The notes below the pieces were generated by a model that did not search any database, was not told the origin of the DNA, and saw only the letters and a list, made by a program, of their open reading frames with translations. The translations under genes and the position numbers were made by a program. From Prorocentrum cordatum (lineage: Eukaryota), in NCBI GenBank assembly GCA_963575745.1, contig CAUYUJ010000001.1:930001-994000 (forward strand): a stretch of DNA of 64,000 nucleotides, written 5' to 3'. Of the stretch, positions 3,223 through 56,308 are shown in pieces (the stretch's first letter is position 1; every line of letters starts with the position of its first letter).

Positions 3223-3252
3223 TCACAACTAATCAGAATTAGCCAGCGCGGA

Positions 3253-3806
3253 CCCCAAAAAGAGAGGTGTTGCACCATGGAGGTGAAAGCTCTGTGTTTT
3301 AAGCTATGTGGTTTAAGCTATGTCGTGTGAGTTAAGTTGTGTGGGCTATGAGAGTCAAAGCTATGCGGCGCGGTCTGAGGTATAAGCTATGCAGTGTCAT
3401 ATACGTGGTGTGAGCCGTGGGTGGAAGCTGGGTTGCGCAAGCTATGCGGGGTAAGATATATAGTGCAAGCTGTGAGGTGTAAGCTATATGGTGCACATTG
3501 CGCCGTGTAAGCGGTGGGGACTATGTGAGGTAAGATGAGCGCGCGGGGCGCCCACGAGCACCCACGAGGTGGCACGGGCGGCAAAGTGGCGCAACCTGGT
3601 CTGACCTACTCAGCGAACGGGCCGCCCACGACGCGGCACGGAGCGGCAGAGCGGCGCAACCTCAGCGGACCCACCCAGCGCGCGGGGGGCCCACGAGCGC
3701 CCATGAGGCGGCACGCGACGGCAACGTGGAAAATCATCGACCGACCCGTCAAGTTACCCAGGGGGCATAAGTAAGAACCCCTAAGTTCAAGCGCTCTTTG
3801 AGTAAA
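3253..3806. mobile_element. Family H element, second adjacent copy
   Basis: Same internal AAGCTATG and GCGCCCACG repeats as 2517-3222, and the same terminal motif. Confidence 0.6.
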
Positions 3807-6068: not shown

Positions 6069-7079
6069 TGATCGCCTCCATTGGTGCACACTGTGTTTTC
6101 TCAATTCAAGTGCCCCCTCGGGGCTCGCAACCTGTTGTTATTAAGGAAAGTGTTCCTGCTCAAACTGTGTTGGTGGGCCCTGCTTTACAGCAGCAGCAAC
6201 AACAACAACAGCAACAGCATCAGCAACAACAACAATCATCGCTTTATGACTGTTCGCTCTTATTTGCTTGCGTGCCAGTCAACACGTAAATCCCAGACCC
6301 TCGATACCCACCCTCTTCGTCTTCGATCGCACCCCCCTGGGTGTATATTTTTCTTACCTGCAGCGTGTGTTTCATGCAGCCGCTCCGGCAGGGGAAGGGA
6401 GGACGGATGGAAGGAAAGGACGAGGGGGAAGGAGGATGGAGCACGAGAAAGAATAGCAGGAGGGGGGCCAGGAACAGAAAACACGTGGCAGGACCAGACG
6501 GGCAGACTGGGCGGGTAGACCCTAACGGGCGGGTCGGGAAGACGGGCCCAGGCGGCCAGGTCGAGCAGGCGGGTTGTTGAGGCGTGCGTCCTGCATGAAT
6601 CTGAATCGCGAGTCTCGAGCGATAGCGCGGTTCCCAAGTAAATCGTGAGATAGACCAAAGCCAGAAGCCAGAGCGTGATTCTTGAGTGTCGACGGAGTGG
6701 CGTCTGAATAAATTGCGAGGAGATCCCACAAGAAAGCGCGATTCCTGCATGCATTGTGAGGACGTCCCGCGAGAGCGCGATTTGGGAATAAATGGTAAGG
6801 ATACATCAGGCGGGAGCTGATGTTGTCGTAACTCAAGGGCCAGGGGGCCACTTCTGAGACCCAAGACTTTCCGCGAGAAGAAACACAGTGCGAGCCCCGC
6901 TAAGGGCAATTCAATTGAAACATACAATGCGCCTGGAGGGGTGATCAACCATCAGTATTAGTCGGTAGCGTGGGCTTAACAACAACAACAACAACAGCAA
7001 CAACAACAATCAGTTTAAGACGGTTCGCTCTTATCTCCTCGAGTGTCATTCAACGTGTATTTCCCATACCGTCGAGACG

Positions 7080-7762
7080 GGCAGCGAAGGGGCCACAACG
7101 GACGATAATGGGGCCACGAAGGACATGCACATGGAGCCATTACGGGCGCGAACGAACCGGGGCCACGAAGCGCATGCGCATACTGGGCCGCAGAGGGCAA
7201 GGACGGGGCCACTGAGAGCAGCGACGGGACCACGAAAGGCAGCGAAAGGGGCACGAAGGGCGACAGCGGGGCCACGACGCGCATGCATATGGAGCCACGA
7301 CGGGCGCGAACGAGCGGGGACCACGAAGGGCATACATATATAAGGCAACGGGGCCACAAAGGGCTGCAACGGGGCCACGAAGGGCAGCGGGGGGGCGCGA
7401 AGGGCGACAGCGGGGCCACGAAGGGCAGCGAGGGGGCCAAGAACGGTTGCAACGGGGCCACGAAGGGCAACGAGGGGGCCACGGACGGCTGCAACAGGGC
7501 CACGAAGGGCAGCGAGGGCGCCACAGAAGGCTGCAACAGGGCCACGAAGGGCAGCGAGGGGACCACGACAGGCTGCAACGGGGCCACGGAGGGCAGCGAG
7601 GGGGCCACGACAGGCTGCAACGGGGCCACGAAGGGCAGCGAGGAGGCCACGAAGGGTTTCAACGGGGCCACGAAGGGCAGCGAGGGGGCTACGAAGGGCT
7701 GCAGCGGGGCCACGAAGGGCCGCGAAGGGGCCACGAAGCGTTGCAACGGGGCCACGAAGGGC
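7080..7762. repeat. GGGGCCACGAAGGGC-based minisatellite (~18/21-bp alternating units, ~39-bp period)
   Basis: Direct reading; it produces the artefactual GATKGSE/CNGATKG ORFs. Confidence 0.95.
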
Positions 7763-8387
7763 GGCGAGATCTTGATTCCGAAATAAACTGCGGGGGAGTC
7801 CTAAGCGTGAGCGCGACTCCTGGGTGCCTCAGTGTCGGGGGCGCGGTGTTTGAGTGAATGGCGGGAACAAGCGAGAGCAATTCCTAAGTAAAAAGCGAGG
7901 AAGTCTCGGACGGGAGCGGGGGTCCTGGCTAAGTTTTGAGGAAGTATCAGGCGGGAGCCGCTGTTGTAATCCAGGGGCCAGGGGCGCAGTGTGAGCCAAG
8001 TGATTTGCCCTGACAAACAACAGGGTGCGAGCACCGGGGGAAGTCCTTCATTTGAAAAAAACACCATGGTCACCAGAGGGGGGATCAACAATAGTCATTC
8101 CTCAGTACTGAGAGTTCAACAACAACAACAACAACAACAATTACTAGCACGCGGGGACACTCCGTTCTCACCAGTGCCAGGGTTTTCATAGGAGGCGGGC
8201 AATACCCCCACTTTGTGGGGTGGCCGGTTCAAGCTCTACCACATTTCCAAACGACTCTTCGCCACCACCCACACCCAGCTTCCCGCCCTATGACGTTCGG
8301 ACACTTCACTTCGTGGCCTGCGGACGACCGTGGCTACTACACTGGCGCATGGGTACAGTGACTTGTTGTGGTAACATTTTCTGTAAG

Positions 8388-8591
8388 CTAGCTTAGTATA
8401 CGACTTTTCCCCCTGTTCCACTGGACAACCCGATACTTGCCCCACCAAGTCTTGCACGCCTGGTGACTGGCCTGGATACCCTTTGCATCGAGCGCCTGAT
8501 GCAAATGATACGGGCTGCCGCAGTCAGCCAAGGGAGGCCGCGACAGCTCTGGGCCATACTGGTCGTCAAGGGCTTTCGCCGACAAAGCCAT
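8388..8591 (-). pseudogene. Short ORF (67 aa, MALSAKALDDQYGPELSRPPLADCGSPYHLHQALDAKGIQASHQACKTWWGKYRV...) downstream of a relic spliced leader; probable retroposed mRNA 5' fragment
   Basis: The ATG at 8591-8589 lies 26 nt downstream of the DinoSL-like 22-mer. The sequence is high-complexity and protein-like, and the block is flanked by an 18-bp direct repeat. Confidence 0.6.
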
Positions 8592-8617
8592 GACCCATCC
8601 AAGAACACAGGCGATAC

Positions 8618-8639
8618 CTTGATCCGAGATGGCTACGGA
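8618..8639 (-). other. Relic dinoflagellate spliced leader (DinoSL)
   Basis: The minus strand reads TCCGTAGCCATCTCGGATCAAG against the consensus DCCGTAGCCATTTTGGCTCAAG: 19/22 identical, ungapped. Confidence 0.85.
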
Positions 8640-8704
8640 TGTGACAGTGATCAGTGATTTTGTTCGATGACGTGGTGACGCACGGACTTGTTGTGGTAAC
8701 ATGC

Positions 8705-8735
<31 letters not shown>

Positions 8736-10325
8736 ACGACGCGCGCATGTGTCCCGCATGGTATTTTTTGCAAGGGATTGTAGCCCCTGGCAGGCGCGCG
8801 GACGCCGTTGAATGCGAAAGTAGCTCGCGCGAGCTCATGTAACATAAATGTTGAAAAACCATTTGTTTTTAACGATTCGGACAGCGCGCGCGGGTAGAAA
8901 TTTGGAAAATCCGTGCACGTGTTTTTCGAGGACCTATGGTGCGATTCGTGCGATTTTATGATACGCGGTGCTGAATTTCTTAAGAAACCCAATGGTATTG
9001 GAAGATTTCGGCGTGCGCGCGCGAAGAAAAAACGAATGTGTACCATATGGTATTATTTGACAGGGATGATGGCCCTGGCATGCGCGCAACCGTTGTTGCA
9101 GAAGTTCGAAGCACGCGAAAAAGTTGCTCGCAAGAGCCCGTTTGACAGAAATGTTGAAAAAATATTGGGTTTCCTCAGAAATCCGCAAGAGCGCGCGGGA
9201 TGAATGTTTGAAATTTGTTTTTGAAAAACCATTGGGTTGTTCATGTTTTTATGTTAAAATCGCTACGAAAACTAAGGTTTTGGAAGGATTTCATCTTGCG
9301 CGCGCGAGTGTGCACTTCGTGTCATTTTTTGCAAAGGATTCTTGAAGTTTGGTTATGTTAGAACAAGACATGTCATTTTATATTGTTTTTTGACAGGGAA
9401 AGCGGGCGTCAACAAAACAACCGGATCTGGATCACATCGTTTTGCCTGAGACTTCCTCACGAAAATTATGAAAATGAGGCTGCGGCCTAGGCGCGGCGAG
9501 GGGGCCATGCACCAGGGGCCCCAACAATAATTATTCTTTAGAAATAATAATGTTCAACAACAATTACTAGCACGTGGGGACACTCCGTTCTCACCAGTGC
9601 CAGGGTTTTCATAGGAGGCGGGCAATACCCCCACTTTGTGGGGGGGCCGGTTCAAGCTCTACCAAATTTCCAAACGACTCTTCGCCACCACCCACACCCA
9701 GCTTCCCGCCCTATGACGTTCGGACACTTCACTTCGTGGCATGCGGACGACCGTGGCTACTATTCAGGGCCCCGCGGCCGACGACGACGGCGTGCGCGCG
9801 CGAAGAAAAAACGAATGTGTCCCGCATGGTATTATTTGACAGGGATGATGGCCCTGGCAGGTGCGCAACCGTTGTTGCAGAAGTTCGAAAAAGTTGCTCG
9901 CAAAAGCCCGTTTGACAGAAATGTTTAAAAAGTGTTGGGTTTCCTACGAATCCGCAAGAGCGCGCGGGATGAAATTTTGACAATTTTTTTTGAAAAACCA
10001 TTGGTTTTTTGATGTTTTTATGTTAAAATCGCTACGAAAACTAAGGTTTTGGAAGGATTTCGTCTTGCGCGCGCGAATGTCCACTTTACCTTATTTTTTG
10101 CAAGGGATTCTTGAAGTTTGGTTATGTTAGAACAAGAAATGTCCACTTTAGCTTATTTTTTGCAAGGGAAAACCGATCGTAACAACACAACCGGATCCGG
10201 ACCAACCCGTTTTGCCTGAGACTTCCTCACGAAAATGATGAAAACGTGGCTGCGGCCTAGGCGCGGCGGGGGGGTCGTGCACCAGGGGCCCCAACAATAA
10301 TTATTCTTTAGAAGTAATAATGTTC

Positions 10326-10369
<44 letters not shown>

Positions 10370-10589
10370 CCAATTTACCGTCATGCGCGATGTTTCCACA
10401 CGAAACAGGCGACCATCATGATAACCATCCACATCATAGGGGGATTTTTGTTCTATAGCGGGGCCCATTATTCCCATTCCCAGATCTCCCGCCCAACGAG
10501 GTCTTGCAAACACCTCCTCCGAGGAATTTCAACATTTCCCGCCTCGAAAACACATGCCAGCGCCTTGCTGCGCCGATGCGAGACCGCCA

Positions 10590-11640
10590 GTGGAACCAGC
10601 GAAGGGTAAAGCACAAGGAAGTATCGAACGACAGGATTGCCTTGGTGGGGATGGGGGCTGTCGGCGGTCAGGCAAGGACTTGGCCCTGAATAGAAAGGGA
10701 GGAAGTCTCGAGCAGGGCTGCTGTTGTTGTTGGGAGCGGCGCCAATGCTGAAGAGAGTAGGGCGCTAGTCCAGCGTAAAACAAAACGAAATCTCGAGCGG
10801 GAACGCTGGTTTTGTTGGGACGGCGGCTTTCGGCGGCGAGGAGGAACACCGCTTTGAGTAAGAGAGGAGGAATCATCGAGCGGGAGCCGTGGTTTTGTCG
10901 GGACGCGGGCTGTCGGCGGCGAGGAACAGCACCGTCCCGAGGAAGAAGAAGGAAAGAAATCTCGAGCGGGAGCGTCGTTCTTGCTGGGAGCGGCGCCAAT
11001 TCAAAAGAGAGTCGGGCGCCAGTCCAGCGTAAAACGGAAGGAAGTCTCGGGCGGGAGCGCTGGTGTTGTCGGGGCGGCGGTTTTCGGCGGCGAGTAGCAA
11101 CACCGCCATGAGTAAGAAGGGAGGAAGCATCGAGCGAGAGCCGTGGTTTTGTCGGGATGGGGGTTGTCGGCGGCGACGAACAGCACCATCTTCAGCAAAA
11201 AGGGGGGAAACCTCGAGCGGGAGCGTCGTTCTTGTTGGGACCGGCGCCAATTCAAAAGAGAGTCGGGCGCCAGTCCAGCGTAAAACGGAAGGAAGTCTCG
11301 GGCGGGAACGCTGGTTTTGTCGGGGCGGCGGTTTCGGCGGCGAGGAGGAGCACCGCCTTGAGTAAAAATGGGGGGAGTCCTCGAGCGGGAGCGTTGTTTT
11401 TGCTGGGAGCGGCGCCGATGAGAGAAAGACTAGCGCGCCAGTCCAAGGTAAAACTGGAGGAAATCTCGAGCAGGAGCGCTGGTTTTGTTAGGACGGCGGC
11501 TTTCGGCGGCGAGCAGGAACACCAGCCCTGAGTAAAAAAGGGGCAGTCTCGAGCGGGAGCGTTGTTGTTGTTGGGGGGCCGGTTTTGGCGGTCCCCCAAA
11601 CCGCTCGAGCGTGAGCCTCATGTTCAATGAACATGTAGCC
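10590..11640. repeat. Degenerate tandem repeat (~75-90 bp units with CTCGAGCGGGAGC...CGGCGGCGAG core and higher-order structure)
   Basis: Recurrent CTCGAGCGGGAG, GGTTTTGTCGGG and TCGGCGGCGAG motifs; 10961-11060 is nearly identical to 11211-11310. Confidence 0.85.
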
Positions 11641-11716
11641 GGCGCCTCGGCGAGAGCGCCAGGGCGCCTGTAAGGAGTCCAACAATATTATTTTTTAGTT
11701 GGTAGCACTAAGTAAT

Positions 11717-11758
<42 letters not shown>

Positions 11759-13849
11759 AATAATAACAATTTTAAACTGTTCGCTCTTACTGGCACGCGT
11801 GTCTCGCATTCTGTATACCCCGACCTGCGATACCCGCCCACTTCGTCTTCGATTGCCACCCCTTTCTGGGGGAATCTCTTCCTTATCGGCCACTGACTGA
11901 AGTGCGAGGAAGTCTCGAGCGAGAACGCCGTTCCTGAGTTCGGGGACCTCTCTGGCCAAGGGCTCTTTCAATGCCTGTGGAGCTATGGAGAAATATCGAA
12001 CGGGAGCCCTTATCGCCGTGATTGGGCTTCCACCAACTTGCTTGAATTACGAGAAAGTCTCGAGTGAGATCGCTATTCCTGAGTTCGGGGGCCTTCCTGG
12101 CCATGGGCTCTCCGAGTAAATCGTGAGGAAGTATCGAGCAGGAACCCTTGTCGTCGTGGCTGGGCCTCCGCCAACTTGATTGAATTGCGAGGAAGTCTCA
12201 AGCGAGAGCGCTTTTCCTGAGTTCGGGGGCCTCTCTGGCCAGGGTGCCTCGAGGCCAATAGTGACGAAGTATCGAGCGGGAGACGTTGTCGTCGTAGCTG
12301 GGCATCCAAGGGCCCACATTTAGATTCAAGCCAACGCTCTCGCGGGAGTCTCGTCTTCAGAGAAAATGTAGCCGGCGTCGAGGCGAGAGCGCGCGGAACC
12401 GTTTCCGAAGATAAACAATAATTATTTTCTATAAACGAATATTGAGCACCAACAACAACAATAATTACAACAACAATAATTACAACAACAACAACAACAA
12501 CAGCAGCAACAGTAGCAACACCAAGCATTTGAATATTGTTCGTTCTTCCCCTCTCGCGTGCCACTCAAAACGTGTATCCCAAACCCTCGATACCCGCCCT
12601 CTTCGTCTTCGATCGTACCCTCTTCGGGGTGTATCTTTCTTATTTGCAACGTGTGTATTTCGTGCAGCCCTTAAGGCAGGGAAACAGAGGACGGATGGAA
12701 GGAAGGGACGAGGGGGAGGGAGGAGGATGGAACACGAGAGAATAGCAGGAGGGGGGCCAGGAACAGAAAACACGTGGCAGGACCAGACGGGCAGATCGGG
12801 CGGGTAGACCCTAACGGGCAGGTCGGGACGGCGGGCTTAGACGGCCAGGTCGAGCAGGCGGGTTGCTAAAGCATGCGTCCCGCATGAGTCGCGAGGAAGT
12901 CTCGAGCGATAGCGCGATTCCCCAATTCACTTCGAACAAAATCAAGCGAGAGCGTGACTCCTGAGTGTGAAGGGCGTGGCGTCTGAATAAAATGGAAGGA
13001 TGTCCCACGCGAAAGCGTGATTCCTGCATTGAACTATTGAGGAAGTCCCTCGCGAGAGCGCGATTTGGGAGCAAGCCGTGGGGAAATAGCAGGCGGGAGC
13101 CGCTGTTGTTGTAAACCGGGGGGCAAAGGGCACAGTTTGAGCAAGATGATCTTCCCGAGTAAAAACGCAGCGAGCCTTGGGAGGGGCATTTCAATTGAAA
13201 AACAAATATGTTACGCGAATGCGTGAATCATATATAATTCGCCAGGAAGTCCCGGCCTAGAACGCAATTCCTAAGAAAATGATGAGGAAATCCCAGACGA
13301 CAGCGCGATTCCTGAATGGCGAGGGCGTGGCGCCAGAGTTCATTGCGAGGAAGACACAGGCGAGAGCACGATTCTTGGATTAATTGCAAGGGAGCGCGAT
13401 TCTCCAGTAAATTGTCAGGAAATATCAGGCGGGAGCCGTTGTTGTATTCCGGGGGCCAACCACGCAGTTTGAGGAGGATGATGTGTCCTGGTTTAAAGAA
13501 ACAGGGTGCGAGCCCCGGGAGAGACAGTTCAATGAAAATACACATATGTTACCAGAGGGGGGGATCAACACGAATTATTTTTCAGTAGTGAGAGTACAAC
13601 AACAGCAGCAGCAGCAACAACAAGAGTCATGTTAAGATTGTTCGCTCTTATCCGCTCGTGTGCCGTTCAACACATATATCCTATATCCCAGACCCTCGAT
13701 ACCCGCCCGCTTCGTCGTCGATCGCACCCCCCGGCGGGTGTATATTTCCCAACCCTCCTTGGTTGGGCATTCGTTCTGCATAGTGCACTGTGGTCTCCGT
13801 CCTTCCTTCTCTCCTTCCCGCCTCCCTCCTGCCTTCTCCTGTCTTGCCT

Positions 13850-15465
13850 GCAGGGGGCTGCGATCTGTGAACCTGTCGCAACTTTCGAGGGCTGCTGGGG
13901 TGCTGGGGTGTCCAGCACAGTGACGTCCTACGCAGATTCAAACTAGACCTCGCCATCCCTGGGGGGCTGCGATCTGTGGAACCGGCGCCACTTTCGAGGG
14001 CTGCTGGGGGGTCCAGCATAGTGACGTGCTGCGCAAATTCAAATTAGACCTCGCCATCCCTGGGGTGCTGCCATCTGTGGAACCGTCGCCACTTTCGAAG
14101 GCTGCTGGGGGGTCCAACATAGTGACGTGCTGCGCAAATTCAAACTAGACCTCGCCATCCCTGGGGTGCTGCCATCTGTGAAACTGTCGCCGCTTTCGAG
14201 GCCAGTTGGGGGTCCAGCACAGTGACGTGCTGCGCAGATTCAAATTCGACCGCGCCATCCCTGGGGGGCTGCCATCTGTGGAACCGTCGCCACTTTCGAG
14301 GGCTGCTGGGGGGTCCAGCACAGTGACGTCTTACGGAGTTTCAAACTAGACCCCGCCATACCTGGGGGGCTGCGATCTGTGATGAACCTGTCGCCACTTT
14401 CGAGACCTGCTGGGGGGTCCAGCATAGTGACGCCCTACGCAGATTCAAACTCGACCTCGCCATCCCTGGGGGGCTGCGATCTGTGGAACCGGCGCCACTT
14501 TCGAGGGCTGCTGGGGGGTCCAGCACAGTGACGCCCTACGCAGATTCAAACTAGACCTCGCCGTCCTTGGGGGGCTGCGATCTGTGAGCCTGTCGCCACT
14601 TTCGAGGGCTGCTTGGGGGCCCAGCATGGTGACGTCCTACGCAGATTCAAACTAGACCCCGCCATACCTGGGGGGCTGCGATCTGTGAACCTGGCGCCAT
14701 TTTCGAGGCCTGCTGGGGGGTGAAGCATAGTGACGTGCTGCGCAGATTCAAATTAGACCTCGCCATCCCTGAGGGGGTCCGATCTGTGAACCTGTCGCCA
14801 CTTTCGAGGCCAGTTGGGGGGTCCATCATGGTGACGTGCTGCACAGATTCAAACTACCTGCCGGGGGGTCCAGCATAGTGACGTCATACGCAGATTCAAA
14901 TTCGACCTCGCCGTCCTTGGGGGGCTGCGATCTGTGAACTTGTTACCACTTTCGAGGGTCCAGCATAGTGACGTCCTACGCAGATTCGAACTAGACCCCG
15001 CCATCCCTGAGGGGCTGCGATCTGTGGAACCGTCGCCACTTTCGAGGCCTGCTGGTGGGTCCAGCAAAGTGACGCCCTACGCAGATTCAAACTCGACCCC
15101 GCCATCCCTGGGGTGCTGCGATCTGTGAAACTGTCGCCACGTTCGAGGCCTGCTGGGGGGTCCAGCATAGTGACGTCCTACGCAGATTCAAACTAGACAT
15201 CGCCATCCCTGGGGGGCTGCGATCTGTGAAACTGTTACCACTTTCGAGGGTCCAGCATAGTGACGTCCTACGCAGATTCAAACTAGACCCCGCCATCCCT
15301 GAGGGGCTGCGATCTGTGAAACCGTCGCCACTTTCGAGGCCTGCTGGTGGGTCCAGCATAGTGACGTGCTGCGCAGATTCAAACTAGACCTCGCCATCCC
15401 TGAGGGGCTGCGATCTGTGAACCTGTCGCCACTTTCGAGGCCTGCTAGGGGGCCAGCATAGTGGG
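13850..15465. repeat. ~101-bp tandem satellite, about 16 units
   Basis: The unit CGCAGATTCAAACTAGACCTCGCCATCCCTGGGGGGCTGCGATCTGTGAACCTGTCGCCACTTTCGAGGGCTGCTGGGGGGTCCAGCATAGTGACGTCCTA is repeated with no unique spacers. Confidence 0.97.
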
Positions 15466-23470: not shown

Positions 23471-24854
23471 CCCCCCGGCTGGCTTGGTATGCTTCTGTTG
23501 CCACCGGAGTGTACTCCATTTGAAGTGGATTCGAGACGGTGCCGCACGCTGACTTGGCCGGGCTCGTGGCTCTTGCCCCTTCGTGGCTCGCGGTGGCAGC
23601 GATCTTGCGGCTGATTACGCGGTCCTGGAGCTGACCTGGCGGATGGGTGTCTGCGTGCCGAACGCCCACGCTCCTCTCGTACCAGTGGCCACTCTGTGAC
23701 GTCTCAGCTGTGTGCATTGGATTGGCTTGGGTCAGCCTTACTACAACTTCCGTTTGTTCAACGAGGGACGTTCGTCTCCTACTCGGTTTGAGCGTGAGCC
23801 GCGGCTTGCCTTCTCTTCTGTCTTGTCCTCTGGTTCCCGTCTTTCTCGTTTCGTTTTGCCTTTCTTGCTTTCCTCGTGTGTCTCTTGCTCTTTCGCTTCC
23901 GCCGCGTTGTTTTCGCCACCGTTGGGGCCCCCCTTTTTCCGCGTGCTGCCTGCGCTTGGCCTGCACTGTCACGACTTGTAAGACGGCGCGCAGCTGCCCA
24001 CGTCGCTCGCGAGCCAAAGAGTATCCCCACCGGCCCATCCAGAAACGATCAACAAGAGAGTTGGTGAATCATGGACGGTTGGAAGCACGCAGTTGCGCGG
24101 CCGTCTTCAGGAGAAAAAATCACCGATAGTTTCCCGCATAGTTTAAAATGGAATTCAGTGCAAGATGCAAGATACAACGTGGTGCTCCCCGTGGTAGACG
24201 TCTCTAGCGCAGGTGGCTGTATCCACCCTGGGCCATGAGAAATAAGGATCGCACATAGCTTCCCGCAGCGAAGTTTAAGATGGAAACCAGTGCCATATAC
24301 GCCAGGTTGTTCCCTGTAGTAAGCGTATCTGGCGCAGGTGCCTGTATCTATTAGTCGTCGCCCTTGTCGCACAGTTGAGAGTCGCATCCCATATGCATCC
24401 TTGATATACACCCCCCACACCGAAGTGTACATTAACCTCGCGTGCGGCTGCTGGTGATGGTGGTGGTGGTGGCGGTGGTGGTGATGCTGCTGGTGTTGCT
24501 GTTTGTGGTGTTCGGTTGCCCTCTTGGGGCCATGTTGGATCAAGTAGTGCTGCTAGAGCCAGGGATGCCTGGGGCAATATTGGGGGTGAGAGGATGAAGG
24601 GTAGGAGGAGGAGGAGGAGGAGGAGGAGGAGGAGGAGGGGGACGAGGAGGAGGAGGAGGAGGAGGAAGAGGAACAACAGAAAAGGAGGAGGGGAAGGAGG
24701 AGGAGGAGCAGGAGGAACGCGGCGCGAGGAGGATGGAAAGGAGCAGGGAGGCGGCATAAAAGAAGCAAGGAAGGAACGGACGTTGACAAGGAAGGCGAGA
24801 AATCGGGTTTTGGACATATGTCGTGGTGAGTGGTTCTTCGAAGACTCGTAATGC

Positions 24855-51247: not shown

Positions 51248-54200
51248 GGTTGTATGTGTGTGTTGTGTGGTTGTATGTATGTGTTGTGTGTTGGGCGTTG
51301 TGTGTTGTGCTGTGTGTGCTGGTTGCTTGGTGTTGCGTGTAGTTTGTCGCGTGTTGTGTGTTGTCTGTTATGTGCTGTTCGGGTTGCGGGTTGCGTGTTG
51401 TGTGCTGTGTCTTATTTGTATGCGTTGTGCGTTGTGTGTTAAGCGTCGCGTGTTGTGTGTTGTGTGTTGCGTGTTGCGTGTTGTGTGTTGTGTGGGTTGC
51501 GTGCTGTGTGTGTGTTGCGTGTTGAGGCTTGTGTGTTGTGTGCTGTGTGTTGTTTTGTTGCGTTGTGTGTGTTGTGTGTAGTGCGGTATGTGTTGTGTGC
51601 TGTGTGGTGTGTGTTGGGTGTTGGGTGTTGTGTGTTGCGCGGTGGGTGTTGTGTGTTGCATGGTGTGAGGTGTGTCGTGTGTGTTGCGTGGTGTGTTTTG
51701 CGTGGTGTGCGTTGTGTGTTGTGTGTCTGGTGCGTGTGGTTGTGCGTGGTTGTGTGTTGCATGGTTGTGTGCGTTGCGTGTTGGGCGTTGTGCGTTGTGG
51801 GTTGAGTGTTGCGTGTTGTGTATGGTGGGTTGTGTGTCGCGTGGTGTGTGTTGTTTGTTATGTGTTGTGTGTTGCGTGTCTTGTGTGTTGTGTGCCGTGT
51901 GGGGTGTGGGGTGTGGTGTGTGCTGTGTGTTGTGTGATGTGTGCTGTGTGGTGTGTGTTGGTTGGTGCGTGGCGTGTGGTGTGTGGAGTGTGTGTGCGTG
52001 TTTTTGTGTGGTGTGTGTGTGTGTTGTGTGTGCCGTGTGTTGTGAGTTGCATGGTTGTGTGTATTGCGTGTTGGGTGTTGGGTATTGTGTATTGGGCATT
52101 GTGTGCTGTGTGTGGCGTGCTGTGCGTTGCGTATTGGGTGTTGTGGGTTGGGTTTTGTGTGGTTCGTGGTGTGTGTTGCGTGTTACGTGTTGGGTGGTGT
52201 GCTTTGTGTGGTGTGTTGTGTGGTGTGTCTTGTATCATGTGCTTTGTGTATTGTGTTGTGTGTTATGTGCTGTGCGTGTTGTGTCTTGTGTGCTGTGTGG
52301 TATGCCTTGTATGTTGTGTCTTGTTTCGTGTGTCTCGTGTGTTGTGTGGTGCGTGGTGTGTGGTTGATGTTGTGTTTTGTATGGTCGGTTGCGTGTGTTG
52401 TGTGTGTGGGTTGTGTTGTGTTGTGTTGTGTTGTGTTGTGTTGTGTTGTGTTGTGTTGTGTTGTGTGTGTGTCTGTGTGTGTGTGTGTCTGTGTCTGTGC
52501 CTGTGTCTGTGTCTGTGCCTGTGTCTGTGTCTGTGTCTGTGTCTGTGTATGTGTCTGTGTCTGTGTCTGTGTCTGTGTCTGTGTGTGTGGGTGTGTGGGT
52601 GTGTGGGTGTGTGGGTGTGTGGGTGTGTGGGTGTGTGGGTGGGTGTGGGTGTGTGGGTGTGGGTGTGGGTGTGGGTGTGGGTGTGGGTGTGGGTGTGGGT
52701 GTGTGTGTGTGGGTGTGTGTGTGTGTGTGTTGGGCGCTGTGTGGTTTGCTTTGTGTGTTGGGTGGTGGGGGTCGTATATTATGTGGTGTGTGTCTTTCGT
52801 GTTGTGCGTTGTGTGTGTGTGCTGCGTGCTGTGTGCTGTGTGCCTTGCACATTGTGCGCTGCGTGTTGCGTCGTGTGTGATGTGTGTTGTGTGTAACGTG
52901 TTGCGCATTGCGTGTTGTGTGGGTTGCGTGTTGTGCGGTGCGTGTTGTGTGTTGTGTGGTGTGTGGTGTGTGGTGTGTGGGTTGCGGGTTGTGTGTTGTG
53001 TGGTGTGTGGTGTTGCATGGTGTGTGGTGTGTGGTGTGTGGTGTGTGTTGTATGTTGTGTGGGTTGCGTATTGTGCGTTGCCTGTTGTGTGGTGTGTTGC
53101 GGATTGTGTGTTGTCTGTTGCGTGATGGGCGTTGTGCGTTGTGCGTTGCTTGTTGTGTGTTGTGCTTTGGGCGTTGTGTGTTGCGTGGTGTGTGTTGCGC
53201 GTTGTGGTCTGTATGTTGTGTGGTGCACGGTGTGTGTTGTGTTGGTTTCATGTTGTGTGGCGTGTGGTGCGTGGTGCGTGTGGTGTTGCAAGGTGTGTGC
53301 GTGTGTGGTGTGTGTGGTGTTGTGTGTGGTTGTGTGTTGTGCGCGGCGCGCTCTAATTTGCATACAGTGTGTCCCCTGGTGTCGGTCCGACGGAGAAGTC
53401 ACCCCCTGCGCAACCGCCGACGCAAAAAGGGCGTTGCGTGGTGGTGCGCGGTGTCTGTTGGGCGGTGTGCCTTGTGTGTTGGGTGTTGGGTGTTGTGTGG
53501 TGTGTGGTGTGTGTTGTGTGCTGTGTGTTGGGTGATGTTTGTTGTGTGTTGCCTTGGTTGTGGGGTGTGCGTTGCACGTTGTGTGCTGTGGGTTGCGGGT
53601 TGTGTCTTGCGTGTTGCGTCTTGTGTGGTTTGTGTTGTGTGGTGTGCAGTGTGTGGTGTGTGTGTGTTGTGTGCTGTGTGCTGTGTGTTGTGTGTTGTGT
53701 GTTGTGTGGTTCATTTTGTGTGTTGTGTGGGTTGCGTGTTTTTTTGCGGGTTGTGGTTTGTGTGTTGTGCGTTGCGTGGTGCGTGTTGTGTGGTGCGGGT
53801 TGCGTGTTGTGCGGTGCGTATTGCGCGTTGCGTGTTGCGTGTTGTGTGTTGTGTGGTGCGTGTTGTGTGTTGGGTGGTGTGTGTTGTACGTTGTGTTGCG
53901 CGCGTTGAGTGTTGTGTGTTGTGGTGTGTGCGGTATGTGTTGAATGTTATATGTTGCGTGGTGTGTAGTGCGCGTTGTGTGTTGTGTGTTGAGTGCTGCG
54001 TAGGCTGCGTAGGTTGCGTGTTGCGTGGCGCGCGGTGTGTGGTGCGTTAGTTTTGCATGTTGTGTGTGGCGTGCGTGTTATGAGTGTGGTGTGTGTGTGT
54101 TGGTGTGTGTGGTTGTGTGTGTTGTGTGATTGTGTTTGTTGTGGTGGGCGGTGTGCGTTGTGTGCTGTGTGTTGTGTGCTGTGTGTTGTGTGTTGTGTGA

Positions 54201-56308
54201 TGTGTGTTGTGTGTTGTCGTGGTTGCGGGCTGTATGTTGTGTGTTGCATGTTGTGTGTTATGGGTTGTGTGTTGCGCGTTGCGCGTTGCGTCGTGTATGA
54301 TGTGCGGTGTGTGCTGTGTGGCGTGTGTTGGTGTGTGGAGTGTGTTCTGTGGTGTGTGGTGCGTGGTGTGTTGCGCGTTGGGTGTTGGGCGTAGTGCGTT
54401 GTGTGTTGTGATTAGCGTGGTGGGTGTTTGGCGTTGTGCGGTGTGCGTTGTGCGGGGTGTATTGTGTCGTGCGGCGTATGTCGCATGTCGTTTGTAGTGT
54501 GTCGTGTGCTGTGTGTTGCGTGTTGCGTTGTGTGTGGCGTGTCTGGTGTGTGTTGTGCGGTGTGGCGTGTGGCATGTGTCGTGTGGCGTGTGGCGTGTGT
54601 CGTGCGCAGTGTGTCGTGGGTGTTGTGTGGCGTGTGGTGTGCATTGTGTGTTGTGCGTTGTGTGGTGTGTGGTGCGTGCTGCGTGTGTTATCCTGTGGAC
54701 GGTGAATGTGCGGTTTCGGGTGTGTGTGTGTGTGTCGGTTGTCTTTGTGTGTTGTGTGTTGCGTGTGTGTTGTGAATTTGGTTTTGTAGTTTGTGCGTTG
54801 GGCGTTGGGCGGTGGGCGTTGTGTGGTGTGCGGTGTGTTGCGTGGTGTGCGTTGTGCGTGTTATGTTGCGTGTTGTGTGTTGTGTGGGTTGTGCGTTGTG
54901 CGTTGCGTGATGCGTCTTGTGTGTTTTCTGTTGTGTGTGCCCCCCCCATTCGGCCGTCCGCCCTCTCATGTTGTCTCCCCCGTGCATTGTGGCACAATGC
55001 GATACCACGGTGCCCAGGTTTAGTTAGCTTTCTTTCCGCCAGCGCAGTTACTATGTTGTCGTTGCGTGTTGCGCGCTGTCTGTTGTGTGTTGTGCGTTGT
55101 GTGTTGCATGGTGTGTGTTGTGCGTTGTGTGTTGTGTGGTGTGTGTTGTGTGGGTTGCGAGTTGTGCGTTGCGCGTTGCGTCTTGTGTGCTGTGTGGTGT
55201 GTTTTGTGTTGCGTGTTGTGTTGTTTGTGGAGTGCGTTGTGTGTTATGCGTTGTGTGTTGTGTGTTGCGCGTTGTGCGTTGTGCGTTTTGTGTTGTTTGG
55301 TGTGTTTTGCGCGTTGGGTGTTGTGTGTTATGTGTTGTGCGTTTGCGTTGTGTGTTGTGGATTGCGCGTTGTGTGTTGTGTATTGTGTGATGTGTGTTTT
55401 GTGTTGTGCGTTGTGTGGCGTGTGGTTTGTGGTGCGTGGTGCGCGTGTGTGTTTGCGTTGTGTGTGGTATGTGCGTGGTTGTGTGTGGTCGTGTGTTGTG
55501 TGGTTGTGGGTTGGCTGTTGTGTGTTGTGTTCTTGTGCGTTGTGTGCTGGGTGCTGGGTGTTGTGCGTTGTGTGTTGTGTGTTGCGTGTTGTGTGTGTTG
55601 TGTGCTGTGTGTTGTGAGTTGCGTGGTGCGTGGTGCGTGATAAGTGGTGTGTGGTGTGAGGTGTGTGGTGTGTGGTGTGCGCTGTTTGTTTGGTGTTGTG
55701 CGTTGTGTGTGTGTGTTGTGTGTCGTGTGTTGTGTGTTGTGTGTTGTGTGGTAAGTGGCGTGTGGTGTGTGGTGTGTGTTGTGTGTTGTGCGTTGCGTGG
55801 TGCGTGGTGCTGGGTGCGTGCGTGTGTGTTTGTGTGTTCTGTGTTGTGTGTTGTGTGATTGTGTCGTGTTGTGTGTTGTGTGGTTGTGTGTGCTGTGGGT
55901 TGGATGTTGCGTTTTGTGTGTTGTGTGTTGTGTGATTTGCGTGTTGGGTGGCGCGTGTTGAGTGCTGCATGCTGGGTTTGGGGCGTTGTGTATTGTGTGT
56001 TGTGTCTTGTGTATTGCGTCATGTCCCTTGCGTCTTGTGTATTGTGTATAGCGTTGTGTGGTGTGTGTGTTGTGCATTGTGTGCTGCGTGTTGTATGTGT
56101 GTTGTGTCTTGTGTCTTGTGTCTCGTGTGGTGTGTGTGTGTGTGTTGTGTGTGGTGTGTGGTGTGTGGTGTGTGGTGCGTGTGTGTGTTTAGTGTGTATT
56201 GTGTATGTGTGTTGTCGTGTGTGTTTGTGTGTTGTGCATATGTGTTGTGTGTTGTGTGTGTGTGTTTGTGTGCGTGCGTGTGTGTTTGTGTGTTTGTGTG
56301 CGTGCGTT
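51248..56308. repeat. ~5-kb degenerate TG/GTGTGTT low-complexity tract
   Basis: Direct reading. It has pure sub-arrays (TTGTG)n, (TGTGTC)n and (GTGTGG)n at 52410-52730 and two unique islands. Confidence 0.98.

Follow-up and report, generated by a model that had tools for sequence, protein, structure and literature searches.

Dinoflagellate retrogenes that carry a relic of the dinoflagellate spliced leader (DinoSL) in their DNA were reportedly described by Slamovits and Keeling in 2008 as "recycled" processed cDNAs. DNA-encoded relics of this kind are an accepted mark of retrogenes, found on about 22-23% of genes in two Symbiodiniaceae genomes according to PMC6050394 and PMC5585692, and the criterion given by Song et al. 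(2017, PMC5585692) is an exact DinoSL match of at least 9 nucleotides within 500 bp upstream of an open reading frame (ORF), on the same strand. Virus-derived genes of Symbiodiniaceae have DinoSL upstream in 13 of 59 cases, which the authors attribute to integration via a trans-spliced transcript (PMC9651163). For rolling-circle transposons, a single Rep-helicase (RepHel), Helitron2-like, is described from Symbiodinium microadriaticum (Heringer & Kuhn 2021, PMC8788227). The locus treated here lies in a stretch of 64,000 nucleotides of Prorocentrum cordatum (contig CAUYUJ010000001.1, positions 930,001 to 994,000 of the forward strand); this whole stretch is called the window, and its own positions are used throughout. 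Within it, a block at 8378-8684 is probably the dead, internally deleted stub of a multi-kilobase unit that encoded a dinoflagellate Helitron-type RepHel of about 2,000 amino acids, with a DinoSL relic retained. It is likely, to the same degree, that the block represents a gene which belongs to the mobile element family itself and which was at one time copied by way of RNA.

The relic stands on the minus strand at 8639-8618, where TCCGTAGCCATCTCGGATCAAG agrees at 19 of 22 bases with the DinoSL given in PMC2606063; the mismatches fall at 8628, 8626 and 8623. Nowhere else in the 64 kb does a stretch come within three mismatches of the DinoSL 21-mer, and none of 100 shuffles yielded such a match. 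Inside it is an exact DinoSL 10-mer, CCGTAGCCAT, on the gene strand and 26 nt upstream of the ATG, which is well inside the limits that PMC5585692 sets for a relic. The motif AUUUUGG of the leader reads AUCUCGG here. GT follows the relic directly, and after 26 nt (8617-8592) the ATG at 8591-8589 opens an ORF of 67 codons that stops at 8390-8388; upstream, the frame stays open through the SL-like stretch and the 18-mer beyond it. The leader match, the GT, the spacing to the ATG and the ORF had all been picked out by a first-pass annotation of the window, and each holds. Two other places in the window match a shortened leader form, CCATTTTGGCTCAAG, with two mismatches, at 11357-11371 (minus strand) and 24530-24544 (plus strand), where 0.13 matches are expected and 0 of 100 shuffles gave two or more; the match at 24530-24544 has the variant GGATCAAG in common with the relic at 8618-8625.

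The surroundings of the relic are laid out as follows; L001 is a related metagenome contig and P0080 a related protein, both described further below.

8132-8339: A part of a short repeat unit that is very abundant; its sister copy at 9555-9762 is 98% identical over 208 bp.
8340-8359: linker of 20 nt; the sister has 14 other bases there.
8360-8377: first copy of the 18-mer direct repeat, an exact match.
8378-8424, minus strand: 3' block remnant, whose minus-strand end, ...CTTACAGAAA, adjoins the first 18-mer.
8421-8427, minus strand: internal-deletion junction with about 3 nt (ACA) of microhomology.
8425-8591, minus strand: first 56 codons of a Helitron-type Rep-helicase gene, by protein and DNA homology.
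8592-8617, minus strand: 5' untranslated region (UTR) of 26 nt between leader relic and ATG.
8618-8639, minus strand: DinoSL relic, 19/22.
8640-8684, minus strand: 45-nt leader between the second 18-mer and the relic, common to L001 and in part to P0080.
8685-8702: second copy of the 18-mer direct repeat; L001 has the same 18-mer at the same place.
8706-8732: (GAC)9 microsatellite, also in L001 and shorter in the sister copy.
8744-9008: B-like part, a diverged partial duplicate of the B part (8744-8908 against 9033-9213, 66% identity).
9009-9560: B part of the abundant repeat unit, 88% identical to 9788-10330.
9555-10330: sister unit (A' plus B') without the block.

The identities between the A and B parts come from a self-alignment of the window, in which the sister unit is without 8340-9008, both 18-mers included, and in which the 307 bp between the 18-mers occur a single time. 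The 18-mer itself, GACTTGTTGTGGTAACAT, occurs exactly twice in the 64 kb, with no third copy at up to three mismatches and with two or more matches in 0 of 100 shuffles. On both counts, the sister copy without the block and the two exact 18-mers around it, the first-pass annotation had described the arrangement correctly.

Pfam gave no family for the 67-amino-acid ORF or for an ORF of 123 amino acids. The identity of the 67-codon ORF is supplied by L001, a contig of 3,410 bp found by an exact-pattern scan of metagenome contigs with 24 bases of the SL-like region, so that the SL-like 22-mer is identical in L001 and the window by the design of the search. L001 aligns to 8777-8425 on the minus strand with 95.5% identity over 356 bp, through the B-like flank (the start of which thus also lies upstream of the gene in L001, at its positions 1-60), the (GTC)n tract and the 18-mer, then the leader of 45 nt with the SL-like 22-mer after it, the UTR of 26 nt and the ATG. 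The homology ends at 8425/8424. Past this break, L001 continues with 270 codons in frame, an AT-rich interruption of 79-85 nt and then another 838 codons. The first-pass annotation had proposed a search for a longer parent whose transcript begins with the leader followed by GTATCGCC, and such a longer gene with this start exists in L001, which reads on for more than 1,000 codons.

Protein comparisons point the same way. Residues 4-55 of the window peptide match residues 13-66 of the environmental protein P0014 with 52% identity (E=1e-14), the peptide matches three repeat modules of P0014, and a tblastn search of the window with the related protein P0048 matched this stretch and no other, with P0048 residues 9-58. 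The window ORF is thus the first 56 codons of a Helitron-type Rep-helicase gene followed by 11 unrelated codons and a stop. These last 11 codons and the stop, which have no homology to the protein family, come from the 3' block remnant at 8378-8424, a piece of 47 nt that in other copies adjoins the A repeat and runs on into different sequence. Between window and L001, 11 base changes alter 8 of the 56 residues, a pattern suggestive of relaxed constraint. The 67-codon ORF has no function of its own, and the locus is a non-functional remnant; a captured host-gene fragment was rejected as its identity, the fragment being the N-terminus of a transposase and not part of a cellular gene.

Some features of L001 deserve mention in their own right. 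The AT-rich insertion of 79-85 nt, at about 803-890, is bounded on both sides by the direct repeat ATAGGC and may be either an intron of the GC-AG type or a small insertion resembling an introner; neither P0014 nor P0048 has a break at its position. At 3240-3410, L001 and the 94% identical P0001 lose family homology at the same residue and go on into A-rich sequence that includes more than 20 consecutive A (about 3299-3321) and in which the truncated ORF of L001 ends; a transcript that was polyadenylated too early, and then retrocopied, might have left this sequence as its tail. Pfam searches of the L001 ORFs gave a chance-level match to Slx4 only.

The gene in question belongs to a family of large proteins known from environmental assemblies. 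A search with the L001 protein found only unnamed environmental-assembly proteins, 13 of similar length and one longer, P0014, and when the C-terminal part of P0014 served as the query, 32 proteins came up, many of which have Helitron_like_N together with AAA_30 or AAA_19 helicase domains. The whole architecture is displayed by P0048, an uninterrupted ORF of 2,064 amino acids: its N-terminus, which begins where the window peptide does and aligns with it, leads into some 1,000 residues on which Pfam has no family, and these are followed by a Rep-like region (Helitron_like_N, E=0.0036) and then by a superfamily 1 (SF1) helicase (AAA_30, E=3e-13). Residues 1 to about 1000 of P0048 consist of repeated modules of 60-70 amino acids of the form ...YG..L..PP.........V....C..W..KYR, over which Pfam has no family. 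Among the relatives, the best Helitron_like_N matches are those of P0016 and P0022 (26.6 bits, E=8e-6), and AAA_30 reaches E values down to 1e-17. In an alignment of 12 sequences, the histidines H1238 and H1240 of the motif GTPHWHI and Y1289 of YINGY are conserved in at least 90%, and Y1293 is invariant; these histidine and tyrosine residues would be the catalytic ones of Rep. A profile of the same alignment matched Pif1 and RecD2 helicases in PDB.

A predicted structure is in keeping with this assignment. The AlphaFold model of P0022, built from a 24-sequence alignment (predicted local distance difference test, pLDDT, 71.7), aligned over 1,127 columns with the Helitron transposase 7lcc_A in a structure search (E=2e-20, second in rank), and 7lcc_A was the only match longer than about 600 columns among the 45 matches listed, out of at least 500, by Foldseek; the Pif1 helicases matched over about 460 columns. 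Membership in the Helitron group would thus rest on the protein, by its motifs and its modelled fold. The likeness to Helitron and Helitron2-like RepHel proteins extends from the HWH motif and two-tyrosine Rep to the Pif1-like helicase that follows it, to the full-length structural match to 7lcc, and to the lack of a Pfam apurinic/apyrimidinic (AP) endonuclease domain in the relatives. The proteins differ from described RepHels in the roughly 1,000 residues of repeated modules before Rep, in a Rep score under the cutoff and in terminal hallmarks, which were not found. It is important to emphasize that the two-tyrosine HUH-type Rep and the C-terminal Pif1-like SF1 helicase are features of the relatives and are not contained in the 56-codon stub. 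Two fragments of the eukaryote-type RepHel helicase in the P0037 cluster are filed under a metagenome-assembled genome (MAG) of a Halieaceae bacterium (MCP4465743.1, MCP4465186.1) and are probably eukaryotic contigs binned into a bacterial MAG. Among viral contigs, the 18-mer had no match, and the protein profile gave 21 pattern stretches, none of which was confirmed.

Whether the leader relic is a property of the family, and not an accident of one locus, can be judged from the relatives. A HMMER query of the 197 N-terminal residues of L001 matched 312 representative clusters from marine assemblies at E<=1e-3, and the best 150 of these 312 were taken; the comparison set comprised 224 proteins, 80 of which can be aligned to the first 70 residues. 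Of these 80 relatives, 55 begin between -3 and +7 residues from the window Met, and the start codon is in this sense conserved. The remaining 25 have predicted N-termini at least 8 residues upstream of the start, and these extensions serve as a proxy for the DNA before the ATG: each was scored by the number of DinoSL bases, of 21, compatible with the encoded residues, and 2,912 length-matched stretches taken from elsewhere in these proteins served as controls. Four of the 25 extended relatives reach 19-21 of the 21 bases, a score that none of the 2,912 controls attains, their maximum being 18. The four are as follows.

P0012: 21/21 compatible bases; HRSHFGSS; 46% identity to L001; leader ends 1 nt before the ATG.
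P0122: 20/21 compatible bases; TVAIFAQV; 43% identity to L001; leader ends 14 nt before the ATG.
P0080: 20/21 compatible bases; SVAILDQG; 89% identity to L001; leader-ATG distance as in the window.
P0083: 19/21 compatible bases; ILSHLGSR; 86% identity to L001; in another frame.

The test is read from predicted proteins and not from their DNA; one of the three leader frames holds a stop, so that relics in that frame are invisible to it, and 3 of the 25 extended relatives align via an internal repeat module and not by their true N-terminus. P0012 has 12 codons upstream of the leader, on a contig about 170 nt longer than its ORF, and P0122 has a single codon there. Three lower-scoring proteins, P0177 and P0225 (17/21) and P0036 (16/21), lie inside the control range and were not accepted as relic carriers. 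Starts of the form "MAQ..." were likewise dropped as a sign of a TTG start within the leader, as P0004, P0043 and P0092 begin at the family's normal position; a start at a TTG inside the leader is a possibility for P0014.

The encoded residues also order the relics by decay. Where the canonical leader gives SVAILAQ, P0080, which is of the window's own subfamily, has SVAILDQ and the window SVAISDQ; because P0080 keeps L where the canonical leader has L and the window has S, the window relic is the further-decayed state. Taken with the family test, this makes the SL-like 22-mer a genuine DNA-encoded DinoSL relic. Since it lies 26 nt upstream of a real, conserved start, descent from an mRNA, that is, a reverse-transcribed gene lineage, is the best reading of the gene. 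The first-pass annotation had taken the leader and ORF together for a retroposed mRNA; the family test and the conserved start support its mRNA-derived origin, whereas the host-mRNA identity that went with it gives way before the RepHel N-terminus. The locus is thus like other DinoSL-relic retrogenes in having its relic on the gene strand near the start and, in relatives such as P0048 though not in L001 with its frame-shifting interruption, a long and uninterrupted ORF, and is unlike them in that the gene is a DNA transposon transposase and not a cellular gene, is reduced to a stub of 56 codons, and has a minimal poly(A). With the virus-derived genes of Symbiodiniaceae it shares a foreign or selfish gene with a host leader in the DNA; the difference is that here the gene is a rolling-circle transposase, of a family that is highly multiplied.

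Sequencing runs show the block in several forms. Contigs from three DNA runs (X1, X2 and X3) and one RNA-library run (X18) were mapped on 8000-9100. In X1, the left flank (8000-8110) has a summed contig depth of 32-292, as against 1.3-4.1e5 for the A part, 0.9-1.8e5 where B begins (8999-9100) and 1.2-4.3e3 for 8407-8665; such sums are not copy numbers, and so they are taken only as a sign that the block is multi-copy. The block is a multi-copy family and not a one-off capture. X2 and X3 contigs that run over 8425 onward have, before 8425, the continuation of the gene known from L001 (29 of 30 bases of the X3 consensus), and these are the undeleted gene; another form in X2 and X3 passes from 8420 into different sequence. 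A joint of 8415 to 9001 with 5-7 inserted bases is present in X1 and X2 (X2 depth 199), a joint of 8332 to 9010 in X1 carries the sister copy's filler, and among the loose ends of X1 none has better support than the sister-type junction at 8339. All junction forms retain A and B and have lost interior, and the shorter forms are the deeper ones. The junction of the window unit at 8421-8427, with its ACA microhomology, is inferred from short loose-end consensus strings of 30 nt. The block would accordingly be short because of the break at about 8425, by internal deletion of a multi-kilobase unit, and not because it is a short cDNA. Outer A and B parts that are kept, varied breakpoints and a shortest form that is the commonest are what is seen in internal-deletion derivatives of DNA transposons, although A and B are only putative transposition ends here and segmental or tandem duplication would serve just as well to multiply the composite. 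From the RNA library, a contig of 172 nt at depth 3.4 covers 8531-8696, from a point 57 nt upstream of the relic to within the ORF; contigs of this library may stem from contaminating DNA. The absence of 8378-8530 from the five contigs of X18 is not used as evidence, nor is the absence of a joint of 8377 to 8703 from the joints listed, 8697-8744 being masked.

The 18-mers can be read, at about even odds, as the target-site duplication (TSD) left when the whole gene unit was retro-inserted into a repeat of the A/B type. They are sharp-edged and bracket a unit that runs from the leader to a short A-run (...CAGAAA), and a length of 18 bp fits target-primed reverse transcription better than any class of DNA transposon. 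The second copy is present in L001, and the first, with its flanks, is covered by X1 and X2 contigs; both 18-mers therefore predate the deletion in the window, and a repair duplication private to this locus is excluded on the same ground. Upstream of the relic, the translation of P0080 agrees with that of the window over 11 codons or more and then differs at the 18-mer, which is expected if the 5' border of the unit lies at about 8684 and the P0080 copy sits elsewhere. The TSD proposed in the first-pass annotation is plausible for the whole gene unit, but not for the captured fragment for which it was put forward. Matches to the 18-mer in two prokaryote contigs, from a Saccharibacteria MAG and a Treponema MAG, were taken as chance.

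For the leader-bearing transposase stub, the likeliest history would run as follows. At least once, a RepHel mRNA with a trans-spliced leader would have been reverse-transcribed and integrated, as with ordinary dinoflagellate retrogenes, and a transcript of such a retrocopy would have inserted into an A/B-type repeat, with duplication of 18 bp. The composite would have been multiplied by rolling-circle transposition via the A and B ends or by segmental duplication, and interior deletions that kept these ends would have produced a series of derivatives. The window unit would be one in which 260 bp from the 5' end and 47 bp from the 3' block survive, and the sister unit would be the commonest, fully emptied form, with no gene sequence left.

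Several observations weigh against this reconstruction, whether against its retroposition step, its transposon class or its relic. Between the relic and the 18-mer are 45 nt, so that the unit is not a simple spliced-leader-capped cDNA with that TSD; the gap calls for an older retrocopy whose transcript was 5'-truncated or not trans-spliced. Next to the first 18-mer, the preceding A-run has only 3-4 bases, in line with the remark in the first-pass annotation that no clear poly(A) is present. The mapped contigs contain no empty site with a single 18-mer, the (GAC)n tract beside the second copy being masked, and no 3' end of a full-length gene. A commoner variant has 8378 to about 8415 without the gene and without the second 18-mer, which fits a deletion derivative and equally allows the block to belong to the A/B repeat. 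The interruption in L001 looks like an intron and shifts the frame, which is unexpected in a processed copy. On the side of the transposon, Helitron_like_N scores below the Pfam gathering cutoff (28.9 bits) in every scanned protein, and the A end has no canonical Helitron 3' hairpin, its folding (z=0.65) being no better than that of shuffles. As for the relic, the spliced leader of P0122 may be an RNA-level leader, and the ENA assemblies of the leader-bearing relatives could be of RNA.

The best-surviving rival, which we rate as distinctly less likely than the stub of a reverse-transcribed gene, takes A and B to be the cis ends of an autonomous Helitron-like element with RepHel in its interior, the 18-mers to be internal sequence and not a TSD, and both window units to be ordinary, non-autonomous deletion derivatives that moved by rolling-circle transposition. 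The junction forms, all with A and B kept and interior lost and the shorter ones deeper, suit it, as do the B-like flank upstream of the gene in L001 and a CTAG at the outer A end (8144-8147). Helitron ends are characterized by 5' TC, by 3' CTRR with a subterminal hairpin, and by insertion that duplicates no target. Against this rival, besides the want of a hairpin at the A end, there is no discernible 5' TC or AT target at the ends of the two units compared; those ends sit within (CAA)n tracts, which would suit a tailed retroposon too, and the exact 18-bp repeats around the gene, like the leader relic, are left unexplained. When the two unit ends and the leader region were folded as DNA, no structure beat those of shuffles. 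Tracts of (CAA)n recur every 0.7-1.4 kb within 6194-13623, between different repeat units, at about 6194-6236, 6978-7010, 8112-8140, 10322-10375, 11714-11771, 12447-12511 and 13582-13623, and the series could be an array of (CAA)n-tailed elements nested in one another's tails.

A more far-reaching version of the RNA-mediated history, which must be called speculative and rather unlikely, is re-arming: a cDNA of a trans-spliced RepHel mRNA, inserted into a non-autonomous A/B element with the 18-bp target duplication, would have made a new autonomous rolling-circle element carrying the host leader, which then multiplied and shed its interior. On such an element, the host leader may supply promoter-like or host-like 5' signals.

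Selection for the leader in DNA, as a cis element that mimics host 5' ends in a promoter-like or translation-aiding way, would account for the recurrence of the relic in divergent lineages at differing distances from the ATG, and finds precedent in the suggestion that TTTT in DinoSL may serve as a TATA-like promoter (PMC9651163) and in the report that relicts preferentially keep TTTT, TTTG and TTGG (PMC5585692). We nonetheless regard it as improbable, for the TTTT core is mutated to TCTC in both the window and L001, the 8 differences in 56 residues between the two look like relaxed constraint, and the RNA-library contig crosses the relic from 57 nt upstream with no visible start there, albeit at low depth and perhaps from DNA.

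Quite improbable, too, is that the SL-like 22-mer and its GT are a picked-up piece of a spliced leader RNA gene or pseudogene, an alternative that the first-pass annotation had itself named. GT does follow the last G, as in such genes, whose introns open with GU or GC but otherwise differ from locus to locus and from species to species, and whose transcripts have sequence upstream of the leader (PMC6616646). But only 26 nt separate the relic from a start codon conserved in 55 of 80 relatives, and because these 26 nt lead into conserved coding sequence, what follows the leader is a 5' UTR and a gene and not the intron of a spliced leader RNA gene; the gap of 1 nt in P0012 and 14 nt in P0122 leaves no room for an intron, the window has no tandem array, such as spliced leader RNA genes often form, and no second 21-mer match, and the AUUUUGG of their 22-nt exon is mutated. 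Rfam at gathering thresholds gave no match in the whole window, a database that may hold no DinoSL model. Least probable of all is the proposal from which the first-pass annotation set out, that the 5' fragment of an unrelated host mRNA was captured between 18-bp TSDs in a non-autonomous element and spread as its passenger: the leader relic, ATG and ORF between exact 18-mers and the sister without the block speak for it, but it is contradicted by a peptide that is the RepHel N-terminus, by the continuation of L001 into the full gene, by the break at about 8425 and by the multi-copy state of the block.

With the internally deleted transposase gene as the preferred reading, a mark known from recycled cellular mRNAs, the dinoflagellate spliced leader, would here stand before a Helitron-type transposase that is widespread in marine assemblies. 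If this is true, the gene of a DNA transposon has been spread or re-installed via an RNA intermediate, and two linked routes of amplification could help explain the very repeat-rich genomes of dinoflagellates. The family also adds a large, undescribed N-terminal repeat region to the RepHel protein. For annotation, the lesson is that where a leader relic precedes a short ORF inside a repeat, the two may be what is left of the element's own gene, without any host gene having been captured. Full-text literature searches, from which supplementary tables fell outside, gave no DinoSL relic on a Helitron-type transposase, and in a retrogene survey of 2025 (PMC12014239) "helicase" and "mobile element" are absent and transposable elements are mentioned once, in general terms.

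Elsewhere in the window, 16 other long ORFs gave no Pfam families. A satellite of 101 bp occupies 13897-15463 in about 15 units of 87-93% identity, and at 51249-56299 there is a G+T-rich low-complexity tract of 5 kb with a period of about 7 (GTTGTGT), a GC skew of 0.66 and an AT skew of -0.85.

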